From Escherichia coli (GTDB lineage Bacteria > Pseudomonadota > Gammaproteobacteria > Enterobacterales > Enterobacteriaceae), in the NCBI RefSeq assembly GCF_003018235.1, contig NZ_CP027437.1: a stretch of DNA of 64,000 nt; one strand, written 5' to 3'. Shown piece after piece: positions 32,638 to 36,598 of this stretch (positions are counted from its first letter, which is position 1; each line of letters begins with the position of its first letter). The position numbers and the translations under genes were made by a program. The notes under the pieces were generated by a model. The model did no database searches. It had not been told where the DNA came from and saw only the letters and a list, made by a program, of their open reading frames with translations.

Positions 32638-32988
32638 TTACTTCAGCCATTCACGGGCCGTCTTCGCCTTGTGGCACGGCCAGCACAGACTCTGCAGATT
32701 ACTGTCGGCATCAGTGCCGCCATGTGCTTTAGGGATGATGTGGTCAACGGTTTTCGCCTCACGCACCACACCGGCACGCAGACATAACTGACACAGGCCT
32801 TTGTCACGCTTCAGGACACGCACGCGGATAACATCCCACTTCGAACCATAACCGCGCTGATGACGAGATTGTCCTGGCTTGTATTGCTTCCAGCCTTCGC
32901 TTTTATGGCTTTCACAATAGCCTGACGGGTCAGTAGTGGTATTGCGGCAACCGCGAACGCGGCAGGCTTTTGGTGTTCGTGGCGGCAT
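32638..32988 (-). CDS. HNH endonuclease associated with terminase (cos-cleavage helper)
   Basis: 116-aa ORF with paired Cys clusters and H-N-H motif (…VDHIIPKAHGGTDADSNLQSLCWPCHKAKT). Confidence 0.85.
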   Translation of the reverse strand: MPPRTPKACRVRGCRNTTTDPSGYCESHKSEGWKQYKPGQSRHQRGYGSKWDVIRVRVLKRDKGLCQLCLRAGVVREAKTVDHIIPKAHGGTDADSNLQSLCWPCHKAKTAREWLK

Positions 32989-33040
32989 ATCTACTCCAAT
33001 GAAAAAGCTACCGGTTGATAACCGATGGCTTTGATTGTTC

Positions 33041-33412
33041 TTACCTGTTTTGAAGAATCTCCCGCTTTCTTACAATACATTCCGTCGTTTCTCTATAGCT
33101 GCACACGTGCTCCCGTGAACATTGGTATGTGTGCAATTCGCCGATGGCATCACCGATACCAGTCAGCACATCTTTTTCATGCAGAATGGTCACCTGCAGA
33201 CGGTTGGTTGGGCAGATAATGTTTGAATAGTTCATTTTGGTGTCTCCTTTGCTTTCGAGACACCAAAATCCCATCACGACACGTTTACCGCCACAAACAT
33301 TATTGCAGGCACCCATTGAATACCTGCGGGACTGATAAACACAGCCTCCTCCATACGTAGTGAAACCATTTTCATATCTCCAGTAATGAATTCTTTGAAG
33401 AGTCGCAATCAA
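33041..33412 (-). CDS. Hypothetical protein (123 aa); coding status uncertain
   Basis: ORF between lysis cassette and HNH; contains a perfect 13-bp hairpin inside it. Confidence 0.25.
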   Translation of the reverse strand: MIATLQRIHYWRYENGFTTYGGGCVYQSRRYSMGACNNVCGGKRVVMGFWCLESKGDTKMNYSNIICPTNRLQVTILHEKDVLTGIGDAIGELHTYQCSREHVCSYRETTECIVRKREILQNR

Positions 33413-33605
33413 TACGACTCACTAATGGGGAGGCATGTCCAACGCGTTGGACGAGTTGCCTACTTGATTTAGATGACACTTTAGAAGGACAGAATGCCTT
33501 CCTCACTCAAATAACATCAATTAAGGAGGTTCAACATGCTTCGTTCCAAAAGTCAGTTGACTGTAATTATTACTACGTCACCTTATGCCGAAGACCTTTT
33601 CCGCT

Positions 33606-33881
33606 TCACTTTGAGCCTGATTCACTTCTACCTGACCGGCTCGCCTCTATCCTTCTGATCCCCGCTTTATCCAGATTGCACTGCCCTAGCGCCGACAACA
33701 GACTGACATTCAAATCTAGACTACCCGCATAAGTCAGCGGTTCAGAAATGGCTGGTTGCGGGGTTTCAGCGGTCAGACTCGCCGGTAACGGTATAGCCGG
33801 AACTGGCACGTAAACTGTCCGCGAACTTTCGCAACCGGTCAGCAGCGGCAGCAGGCACAGGGCGTACAGCACAATCATCAT
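33606..33881 (-). CDS. Putative o-spanin Rz1-like lipoprotein, overlapping and extending past Rz
   Basis: Alternative frame inside Rz: MMIVLYALCLLPLLTGC (lipobox) followed by a Pro-rich segment. Confidence 0.5.
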   Translation of the reverse strand: MMIVLYALCLLPLLTGCESSRTVYVPVPAIPLPASLTAETPQPAISEPLTYAGSLDLNVSLLSALGQCNLDKAGIRRIEASRSGRSESGSK

Positions 33882-34158
33882 CCGCAACAGCCACTTTGAT
33901 ATCAGCCTGGGTTCTCTGTGACTCCAGTGCGATCTGCTGTTTTGCATGCTGGTTAGCCTCCAGAACTGTATTGACGATTTGCAGTGATTGCAGGACGTTA
34001 TTGGTAATAGCGGTTGCCGATTCGGCATTTTGTACAGCCTCATCAGCACGTTTCTTTTCGCGCTGGTATTTGCTGTGGTAGTGGTTAGCTGACCAGACGA
34101 GAGAACCGAATAAAGTCAGGAGGAAAGCAGAAATAACCAGCTTATAGCGAAGTTTCAT
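33766..34158 (-). CDS. i-spanin Rz-like protein
   Basis: N-terminal TM helix then coiled-coil region; directly after endolysin. Confidence 0.65.
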   Translation of the reverse strand: MKLRYKLVISAFLLTLFGSLVWSANHYHSKYQREKKRADEAVQNAESATAITNNVLQSLQIVNTVLEANQHAKQQIALESQRTQADIKVAVADDDCAVRPVPAAAADRLRKFADSLRASSGYTVTGESDR

Positions 34159-34618
34159 TAACCACCCCGCCAGCTTCTTTGAATTTGGCAATCAGACTAT
34201 CGATCTTGTGTTCATACTGACCGTAGCCAGCACCGGGCAATGAGGCCCAAATATTGCTGCAACGATCAATAGCCTGACGAATATCACCCCGATCAATCAG
34301 CGGCAGCGCGCCGCGTTCTTTAATCTGCTGTAACGCCACCGCATCCTGGCTTTTCGGGGAGAAATCTTTCAGTCCAAGCTGTTTACGGTAGGCGTCCCAC
34401 CATTTCGACAGCAGTTGATAACGCCCGGCGGCGGTGGATTTCAGTTTCGGGTTAAGCGTAACCAGCTTACGTGGATGATCGGAGTAATCAGTAAGCAGTT
34501 CGCCACCAACGATAACGTCATAACCATGATTTCTGGTCTTCTGCCATCCGTTATCAGTTCCTTCTGACCACGCCAGCATATCGAGGAAGGCTTTACGCTG
34601 AGGATTAAGGTTTTGCAT
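34142..34618 (-). CDS. Endolysin, lambda R-type lytic transglycosylase
   Basis: 158-aa ORF nearly co-linear with lambda R as I recall it (…QRKAFLDMLAWSEGTDNG…DYSDHPRKLVTLNPKLKSTAAGRYQLLS…). Confidence 0.9.
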   Translation of the reverse strand: MQNLNPQRKAFLDMLAWSEGTDNGWQKTRNHGYDVIVGGELLTDYSDHPRKLVTLNPKLKSTAAGRYQLLSKWWDAYRKQLGLKDFSPKSQDAVALQQIKERGALPLIDRGDIRQAIDRCSNIWASLPGAGYGQYEHKIDSLIAKFKEAGGVVNETSL

Positions 34619-34922
34619 TTTTCACCCCTGTCAGTCGTTCCCAGAAGTAAGTCAGCGCAACTGAACCCATTGCACCGCTGATCCCTGCTGTGGCGAGAAT
34701 CATGTAAATGCTAAATCCGCTTTCGATACTTATCAGGCCACCAATAACACCGGTAAAACCCGATACCACTATCTGAGCCAGAGCATTAATCCAGCTCCAT
34801 GTTGCTTTGCTCTGCTTCACATCAATCAGGTAACGGACAAGCCCGCCCCAGCACGCGAAGATCAGCAGAACGAGCCAGGACATCCCGGCAATGCTCTCTT
34901 TTTCGTGCATATGAATAGCCAT
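34605..34922 (-). CDS. Putative holin (start uncertain)
   Basis: Hydrophobic protein with 2-3 predicted TM segments immediately upstream of endolysin. Confidence 0.6.
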   Translation of the reverse strand: MAIHMHEKESIAGMSWLVLLIFACWGGLVRYLIDVKQSKATWSWINALAQIVVSGFTGVIGGLISIESGFSIYMILATAGISGAMGSVALTYFWERLTGVKNAKP

Positions 34923-34951
34923 GATTTTGCCGCCGACGGATGATCGGGACT

Positions 34952-35449
34952 CTAAATGATAGGGAACAGACTCACGGGGTAATTTAACGACAAAGCACGG
35001 AGTTGAAGATCCCCACAAGCCTGGAATAAAAAAGCCAGCGACAGGCTGGCAATGTGAGGGTAACGCAAAGTGCTTAGAAACAAAAAAAGGCCGCCATCGG
35101 CGACCTTCGAGGTATCTAGCGTGCTGGATACTTTCAGCTTCGCCTTCAATTCAGCGTTGATTTCTTTCAGGCGATCAACATCGTTTTTAAGTTTTTCAAT
35201 GTCTTGCCCTTTATTATCAAGGTCGCGCTGAAGACCTTTAATAATTTCTGTTTGGGCCGCCTGTACTTCTCGTGTCGTCTGGAGAGACTTATCAATATCA
35301 TCAACTTGGTTAATCAAGCGTGTACCGAAAAAGCCTACAACTAACATAGTTATCCCAACCATAAAGTTGAGAACCCAGACTTTTGTTCCGGAAGCAGTGT
35401 TTGGAGTTTCGTCGATAAAGTGCACCTTATGCCAGTTAAAGTTACCCAA
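34952..35449 (-). CDS. Hypothetical membrane-anchored coiled-coil protein; may be partly read-through
   Basis: ORF with one TM segment and a K/E-rich coiled coil upstream of holin. Confidence 0.3.
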   Translation of the reverse strand: MGNFNWHKVHFIDETPNTASGTKVWVLNFMVGITMLVVGFFGTRLINQVDDIDKSLQTTREVQAAQTEIIKGLQRDLDNKGQDIEKLKNDVDRLKEINAELKAKLKVSSTLDTSKVADGGLFLFLSTLRYPHIASLSLAFLFQACGDLQLRALSLNYPVSLFPII

Positions 35450-35908
35450 CGTCTGCGCAGATCGTTAGATTCGGCAACATTGTAACTGGATAAGGAATAG
35501 AAAACCTTGGAATTTTAAGAAGAAACTGATTGATCGATTATTTAACGAGCGAACACATCCATACACCCCAGACGGGTACTACGACAAAGGCCATGAAATA
35601 AGTAACTTTTGCTTGAATGTTTTGCATTTCGCTTCCTTAGCAGTCCGATAAGTACTGTCTGCTCATCCAACCTAACGAATGTAGATCAGAATGACAAGTC
35701 TTTCGCGCTAATTTCAATTTGATATCTGTTCGTAAACATGATGGCGCGAAATATTACGCATGAAGTGCTTCTACATCAACATAAAAGTTACTTTTTTTGT
35801 GTTCACAGCATGTAAAGTAAAAGCCCCGCACGATGGCGAGGCTGTTAATTCTTTGTCGACCAACAAAGCTATGGCGACGATATCAGATTTACATGAAATA
35901 TAAGCGTT
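35450..35908 (-). promoter_or_regulatory. Probable late promoter / Q-utilisation region between Q-like gene and lysis cassette
   Basis: Long non-coding AT-rich gap in the position of lambda PR'-qut; no specific site assigned. Confidence 0.3.
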
Positions 35909-36598
35909 TCAGTTCGGTTTTGCAAGACTTACGTGCAAACTTGTCGCCTTTTGTTGTGAACGTGATCGCGTTACTGAGATAAGCGCACCGCTATCGAGTC
36001 GCATAAAGCAGCTACGCATTGCCAACCAGTGAGGCAGGTATGTCTCTGTCCAGGTGGATTTCGCCACGCCAACCAGTTCCGCCAGCTTCTGGTATTCGTA
36101 GGCATCTTTCCCGACCAACCCTGCTTTGACATCCTGCGCTGCCAGCCATATCAGCTTCTTCAGGCGCTCCATGGTCTTGCCTGCCACCCTCTTCGCGCCG
36201 AGATACCCCCTGAATTCAGACCACGCCCACTGGGTGATCGCCACCTGGTATTCAAAGCTGATGTTTTCACTGTAACTCCACAGCAACCACGCTTTCTGAT
36301 GTTCTTCGAGAGACAGAACCGCGCGGCGCCATGAAGATGTTGAGAACTCAACCTGGCTGACCAGTGCAATGGATGAACCTTTTGCGTACGACTGCTTACC
36401 GGAAATCGGCGGATTATCCAGCGTAATCATCTTGCCCGTTACCTCATCCAGAATGCGCGGCTTCTTTCGTTTATATGTACCAGTATCAAATTGTGCATGC
36501 TCCAGCCAGGCTTCAAGCTGGCCTTTCGTTGCTCCGCTCAAATCAGCAGTAGCCACAATGAGTTGCTCGCGGACATACTGTAAATATTGGGTATTCAT
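35909..36598 (-). CDS. Putative late-gene antiterminator (Q-like)
   Basis: 229-aa ORF located between rusA and the lysis cassette, the canonical Q position; not similar to lambda Q, assignment positional. Confidence 0.5.
   Translation of the reverse strand: MNTQYLQYVREQLIVATADLSGATKGQLEAWLEHAQFDTGTYKRKKPRILDEVTGKMITLDNPPISGKQSYAKGSSIALVSQVEFSTSSWRRAVLSLEEHQKAWLLWSYSENISFEYQVAITQWAWSEFRGYLGAKRVAGKTMERLKKLIWLAAQDVKAGLVGKDAYEYQKLAELVGVAKSTWTETYLPHWLAMRSCFMRLDSGALISVTRSRSQQKATSLHVSLAKPN

Follow-up and report, generated by a model that had tools for sequence, protein, structure and literature searches.

In the region examined here, a LysC-family o-spanin gene overlaps the Rz gene. The two almost certainly stand at the distal end of the lysis cassette of a lambdoid prophage, an SfIV/SfV-like element of E. 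coli that has an HNH/terminase module of the HK97 type. The pair combines an SfIV/SfV-type Rz with a P2 LysC-type lipoprotein; it is of an overlapped spanin type that is known and annotated already, and in this sense is ordinary. Coordinates refer to the window, the whole stretch of 64,000 nucleotides of E. coli DNA that was analyzed. A first-pass annotation of this DNA had proposed a spanin pair of the overlapped rather than the embedded architecture. Comparison across related loci upholds this proposal, as the o-spanin gene starts inside Rz and ends beyond it in 81 of 81 loci that could be evaluated.

Organization of the lysis cassette

The lysis genes are all encoded on the minus strand, in the order holin, endolysin, Rz-like gene and +1-frame lipoprotein open reading frame (ORF). 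The features of the region are:

34605-34922, minus strand: holin (LydA-type, holin superfamily III); Pfam PF16083 at 1.7e-22 and phrog_785 (holin) at 2.4e-40
34142-34618, minus strand: endolysin; phrog_90 (endolysin) at 1.3e-62, lysin/endolysin in the SfIV and SfV annotation
33766-34158, minus strand: i-spanin (Rz-like), 130 aa; phrog_214 (Rz-like spanin) at 7.4e-48, i-spanin in the SfIV annotation
33606-33881, minus strand: o-spanin (LysC-type Rz1), 91-aa precursor; Pfam PF23793, phrog_456, o-spanin in SfIV
33766-33881, minus strand: two-frame region of 116 nt, with Rz codons 93-130 and Rz1 codons 1-38
33606-33765, minus strand: extension of the o-spanin gene past the Rz stop, 160 nt, with Rz1 codons 39-91 and the stop
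33536-33658, plus strand: 40-codon ORF outside the spanin, convergent with lysC and antisense to its last 17 codons

The holin and endolysin genes lie directly upstream of the spanin pair on the same strand, as in cassettes of the overlapped-spanin type. The endolysin gene shares 14 nt with the end of the holin gene and 17 nt with the beginning of Rz. Two Met starts are available to the holin (in MAIHMHEK), and the RefSeq annotation places its start at 34910. The holin counterpart at a 98.3% identical RefSeq locus is named 'phage holin family protein', and the endolysin counterpart in RefSeq is a 'glycoside hydrolase family protein'. NCBIfam searches provided no useful match for any of the four lysis proteins, a permissive Rfam search of 32900-34300 gave no match, and a sigma-70 promoter scan of 32900-35600 found none.

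A further minus-strand ORF (34952-35449) lies between the holin and the gene for the Q antiterminator (35909-36598); its product is TM-plus-coiled-coil-like and has weak matches only (phrog_739 'Rz-like spanin', 5e-4). Inside the 3' part of this ORF are two strong terminator-like hairpins (35108-35086 and 35050-35034), which possibly represent the tR' region of the late operon.

The inner-membrane subunit

Counted from its first TTG, the Rz-like ORF occupies 33766-34191. Translation probably begins at the ATG at 34158 (MKLRYKL..., 130 aa, 393 nt), which is preceded by GGGGTGG. This 393-nt form is annotated alike in SfIV, SfV and the 98.3% identical RefSeq locus, and the Rz homologues are nearly all 130 aa in length. 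The coordinates originally assigned to the pair were all correct except for the upstream limit of Rz, which is likely to be 34158 and not 34191.

The protein carries an N-terminal transmembrane domain (TMD) at residues 7-23, with a Kyte-Doolittle maximum of 2.05. In the AF2 model, helices span residues 3-93 and 103-119 (mean pLDDT 79) and are separated by a short break around DDDC96AVRPVP, where Cys96 is the single cysteine of the protein. This TMD-helix-linker-helix layout is the one described for i-spanins (PMC6139136), and an N-terminal TMD joined to a predicted helical periplasmic domain is the combination by which an i-spanin would be recognized. Pfam PF10828 (DUF2570), the family that NCBI uses in naming Rz homologues, scores 20.7 bits on Rz, below its cut-off of 26.6. 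SfV Rz reaches 28.0 bits on the same family, and precomputed PF10828 hits are also found on close homologues of the window Rz. The i-spanin is best described as SfV-type, with the LysC-family label applied to the o-spanin only.

The phrog_214 profile matches Rz over positions 7-131, and its positions 132-175 match LysC residues 37-80 (E 3.3e-4). This composition suggests that some PHROG members are fusions of Rz with the LysC C-terminus or frameshifted annotations. A fused Rz::Rz1-C gene as the source of the tail match was considered and rejected, as locus H9 is unfused and a fusion is found in none of the 81 loci.

The overlapping lipoprotein

The alternative-frame ORF extends in full over 33606-34049, in the +1 frame relative to Rz. 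Its lipobox peptide, MMIVLYALCLLPLLTG with the cysteine directly following, begins at 33881 and defines a product of 91 aa (276 nt). The ORFs and the Pfam match to PF23793 bear out the initial observation of a lipobox-bearing alternative-frame ORF (MMIVLYALCLLPLLTGC, from 33881) that starts inside Rz. PF23793 (LysC) scores 57.1 bits (1.8e-15; cut-off 27) and aligns over profile positions 2-68 of 69 with residues 13-81; P2 LysC itself scores 64.9 bits. It is the sole Pfam family found for this protein at E<=0.01. The PHROG matches, phrog_456 (1e-26) and phrog_3001, are both labeled 'Rz-like spanin', and a 100% identical E. coli protein is named 'Rz1-like lysis system protein LysC' by NCBI. A homologue search of 5.8 billion proteins returned 424 clusters, all with PF23793 and 81-115 aa long as annotated. 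The LysC score, these homologue clusters and the codon-position evidence for purifying selection on the Rz1 frame argue that the +1-frame ORF is far more than a chance reading frame.

The lipobox reads L-T-G-C17, and L14, G16 and C17 show no variation among the 16 homologues, from nine genera, that were aligned. The hydrophobic core of the signal peptide has a Kyte-Doolittle value of 2.24. Under the +2 rule, lipoproteins that lack Asp at position +2 after the lipidated cysteine are sorted to the outer membrane. The +2 residue here is Glu and is Gly, Asn, Thr, Ser or Ala in the homologues, with Asp in none, and the putatively lipidated protein is predicted on this rule to be sorted to the outer membrane.

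The mature form would comprise 75 aa with 7 Pro, all within the linker at residues 26-48. An earlier description of the product as Pro-rich is fitting for this linker and only partly apt for the protein overall. The AF2 model places a C-terminal helix at about residues 51-88, with pLDDT of 82-85 over 61-80 in a model that is weak as a whole (64). Cys68 within this helix is invariant. No solved structures matching the LysC family profile were found.

Two other spanin types were considered for the lipoprotein and rejected. A unimolecular spanin of the T1 gp11 type does not fit, as the C-terminus is hydrophilic (ending in RRIEASRSGRSESGSK) and the signal peptide is the only hydrophobic segment. 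A lambda-type embedded Rz1 is likewise incompatible with a stop 160 nt beyond that of Rz and with LysC as the sole Pfam family.

Translation start of the lipoprotein

Translation may begin at an upstream ATG (33947) and not at the MM codons at 33881/33878; the precursor would then have 113 aa and a long n-region with positive charge. We consider this variant plausible, if somewhat less than probable. The ATG is in frame, 22 codons upstream, with GGAGG/GAGG about 9 nt before it, and the unique sequences keep both elements; no clear Shine-Dalgarno sequence precedes the MM codons. However, conservation of the stretch at 33947 is uninformative as to the start codon because these bases are also Rz coding sequence and are constrained by that frame. 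Existing annotations differ as well. SfIV and SfV carry genes of 342 and 339 nt (113 and 112 aa) and the NCBI LysC has 113 aa, whereas RefSeq annotates the 276-nt (91-aa) form at the closest locus. Signal peptidase II cleavage would yield an identical mature lipoprotein from either start, and the 91-aa form beginning at 33881 is the one used throughout this description.

Predicted function of the pair

Rz would sit in the inner membrane with type II topology and a helical domain in the periplasm, and the +1-frame product would be an outer-membrane lipoprotein of the LysC family. By analogy with lambda Rz-Rz1, the two proteins would assemble into a complex that bridges the periplasm. Once holin and endolysin have removed the peptidoglycan, this complex would be expected to fuse the inner membrane with the outer and so complete lysis. 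The shared 116 nt would specify the linker, second helix and tail of Rz in one frame, and the signal peptide, lipobox and Pro-rich linker of Rz1 in the other. The functional C-terminal helix of Rz1 would be encoded by the 160 nt beyond Rz.

An alternative role for the lipoprotein is that of a lysogenic-conversion or exclusion lipoprotein, a Bor/Iss- or Cor-like moron overlapping Rz by chance. What speaks for such a role is the placement of the gene: in related prophages bor/iss is found where this small lipoprotein is encoded, at the end of the lysis genes. We nevertheless regard it as very improbable. The gene is co-oriented with the i-spanin gene and translationally nested in it, its Pfam family is common with P2 LysC, and in the relatives bor/iss stands apart as a gene of its own on the other strand. 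The cassette also contains no other o-spanin candidate, and assignment of the lipoprotein as the o-spanin partner of Rz remains the preferred reading.

Coding status of the 160-nt extension

The o-spanin gene shares 116 nt with Rz (33766-33881) and, after the Rz stop, continues for exactly 160 nt (33606-33765), in agreement with the continuation of about 160 bp reported in the first-pass annotation. To evaluate the geometry we used 80 related IMG/VR loci that were fetched, the reference loci and the window, of which 81 were evaluable. All 81 have a +1-frame start inside Rz, with an overlap of 113-131 nt (116 nt in 79/81) and an extension of 136-163 nt. Homologues with a conserved stop within Rz had been named as the pattern that would make the extension read-through, and a stop of the lipoprotein frame inside Rz is present in 0 of the 81 loci.

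The extension evolves as coding sequence in the Rz1 frame. Among 61 unique nucleotide sequences, diversity (pi) at the three Rz1-frame codon positions is 0.153, 0.136 and 0.524. Stops are present in none of the 61 in the Rz1 frame, in 58 of 61 in the Rz frame and in all 61 in the third frame. The best-conserved block of the o-spanin in the 16-member alignment, ETPQPxIPxPLTYGxSLDLNVSLLSALGQCNxDK, is encoded entirely past the Rz stop. The extension thus shows the pattern expected of translated sequence under purifying selection.

In the two-frame region (33766-33881), diversity is low at all positions (pi 0.14-0.28). The o-spanin frame appears to be more constrained here than the i-spanin C-terminus, because most change falls at positions that are third in Rz1 codons and first in Rz codons (pi 0.27-0.28 versus 0.14-0.16). 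This Rz1-biased constraint agrees with the reported divergence of i-spanins in the part encoded by the overlap (PMC6139136).

That the extension is an artefact, in which a sequencing frameshift or a lost stop lengthened an embedded Rz1 and the tail is read-through, has in its favor only the a-priori expectation from lambda that Rz1 lies wholly inside Rz, with nothing in the data behind it, and it is excluded by the same geometry in every related locus from independent assemblies, by 99-100% identity of the o-spanin to database entries, by the position of the most conserved part of the protein in the extension, by the third-position variation and lack of stops in the Rz1 frame, and by alignment of the LysC profile through the extension. 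The sequencing frameshift first raised as a possible cause of the length was checked in this way and is discounted; there is no assembly error at the spanin locus.

A conserved small open reading frame downstream of lysC

The plus strand at 33400-33660 carries a small-ORF module, which is the only nearby element that might repay more work. Its 40-codon ORF (33536-33658) covers the last 17 lysC codons (33606-33658) in antisense. The ORF is preceded by TTAAGGAGGTTCAACATG, with a perfect and invariant Shine-Dalgarno sequence at 33523-33529. An IMG/VR scan with the 18-mer TTAAGGAGGTTCAACATG identified 90 stretches, which together with the other loci and the window provide 94 carriers. In 92 of these the ORF is uninterrupted and has exactly 40 codons.

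The C-terminal 20 residues of the product (DLFRFTLSLIHFYLTGSPLSF) are nearly invariant, with two substitutions among 16 peptide variants. Variable sites in codons 21-40 number 1, 0 and 7 at codon positions 1, 2 and 3. By coordinate arithmetic the third positions of these codons are the second positions of the lysC frame, so selection follows the plus-strand ORF and not the variable LysC tail. Judged from this codon-position pattern, the C-terminal half of the ORF is under purifying selection. The N-terminal half occurs as two haplotypes, with variable sites of 10, 10 and 5 and no third-position pattern.

The leader contains a hairpin (33436-33453) in which three pairs are kept through two-sided changes (for example CG/UA and AU/CG exchanges, each seen in 8 of 16 sequences). 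Where one side alone has changed, the pair still fits G-U pairing on the plus strand only. An anti-Shine-Dalgarno element, CCUUCC (33497-33502), is predicted to have two alternative partners, an upstream GAAGG and the Shine-Dalgarno sequence. We tentatively suggest that the 40-codon ORF may specify an uncharacterised product of lambdoid prophages, a small protein or moron under translational control. The 40-aa peptide is found on hundreds of contigs and is labeled only 'hypothetical', and its homologue search gave 15 clusters, all unnamed. Rfam, Pfam and PHROG searches of the module gave no match.

The module is present, unannotated, in 625 of 5,426 complete E. coli genomes (about 11%). In most carriers, what is left of lysC is a 3' remnant (from about codon 52) that has bor/iss after it on the ORF strand and HNH upstream in antisense, and the ORF itself stays intact there, with purifying selection on its C-terminal half; a full lysC beside the module, as in the window, is seen in few. 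Two of the loci (L004 and L005, positions 2501-2887 in each; E. coli W60 and O157:H7 prophages) have the lysC 3' remnant and the module between iss and HNH. These prophages carry a lambda-type 'lysis protein'/RzpD gene and iss/bor, and their lysC remnant looks like a recombination scar left by replacement of a LysC-type spanin cassette.

At 33411-33433 on the plus strand is a 23-nt look-alike of a T7 promoter, AATACGACTCACTAATGGGGAGG, which occurs once in the window and includes the 14-nt core stretch of the consensus for T7 class III promoters. A role as a promoter for a phage RNA polymerase was rejected, as no lineage other than that of the window and SfIV has the exact 14-nt core, and ATACAACTCACTAAT stands in its place in most relatives; the resemblance is probably coincidental. 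Between the module and the HNH gene lies a segment of about 330 bp (33041-33412, minus strand) that is absent from SfIV. Within it are a terminator-like hairpin (33327-33305) and an ORF of 64 aa (33041-33235) with a match to phrog_31491, a family of unknown function (5.5e-50).

Comparison with known spanin systems

Kongari et al. (2018) define embedded, overlapped and separated spanin architectures, comprising 182, 228 and 118 systems, respectively (PMC6139136). The overlapped class is the commonest, with 228 of 528 two-component spanins, and o-spanins had been left unannotated in 196 of the 528 systems (PMC6139136). Gene callers often miss o-spanins of this type, and an annotation is due here at 33606-33881 (or from 33947).

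Shigella phages SfIV and SfV encode the closest annotated relatives, and the same census places these phages in its spanin family groups once as a pair and once inside a Mu-named group (PMC6139136). The SfIV cassette (KC814930, SfIV_52/SfIV_53) has 90.8% nucleotide identity to the window, and its genes are annotated as holin, lysin, i-spanin and o-spanin; the same four genes are annotated S, R, Rz and Rz1 in SfV (U82619). Over the annotated ORFs, o-spanin identity is 99% to SfIV and 78% to SfV. The SfIV o-spanin differs from that of the window by a handful of substitutions, whereas SfV has another LysC C-terminal tail and lacks the downstream module of about 230 bp. Both phages have an Rz of 393 nt, the +1 frame and an overlap of 116 nt, with an extension of 160 nt in SfIV and 157 nt in SfV. 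The comparison with known spanin pairs that had been proposed as a check thus finds the same order, frame and geometry in SfIV and SfV. The 98.3% identical RefSeq locus has the 393-nt and 276-nt genes annotated exactly as read here.

P2 LysB/LysC is the prototype of the overlapped architecture. The P2 lysC gene begins within lysB, in the +1 frame, and its end lies 145 nt past that of lysB (from the sequence; PMC3091744). P2 LysC and the window o-spanin have in common the PF23793 domain, a lipobox, a Pro-containing linker and a conserved cysteine near the C-terminal helix, and their lengths are 96 and 91 aa. Pairwise similarity is weak for the o-spanins (BLASTP 26% identity, E 0.048), and pairwise comparison detected none between the window Rz and P2 LysB, so the link to the characterized P2 pair rests on the LysC profile and applies to the o-spanin only. 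The surroundings differ too, as P2 lysC runs into the tail gene R whereas lysC of the window runs into a non-structural intergenic module. The Burkholderia P2-like LysC proteins are mature lipoproteins of 72-74 aa with 7 Pro (PMC3091744), essentially the same as the mature o-spanin of the window.

The statement that the protein is longer than typical Rz1 proteins stands against lambda Rz1 only, as its length is normal for the LysC family. Lambda Rz/Rz1 is the only spanin pair with extensive experimental work. The lambda pair resembles that of the window in predicted topology (a type II inner-membrane helical protein with an outer-membrane lipoprotein), in its position after the endolysin gene and in the +1 frame. 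Mature lambda Rz1, with 10 Pro among its 40 aa, has no predicted structure (PMC6139136). Its gene lies entirely within Rz, whereas the o-spanin of the window has a conserved C-terminal helix that is encoded outside Rz.
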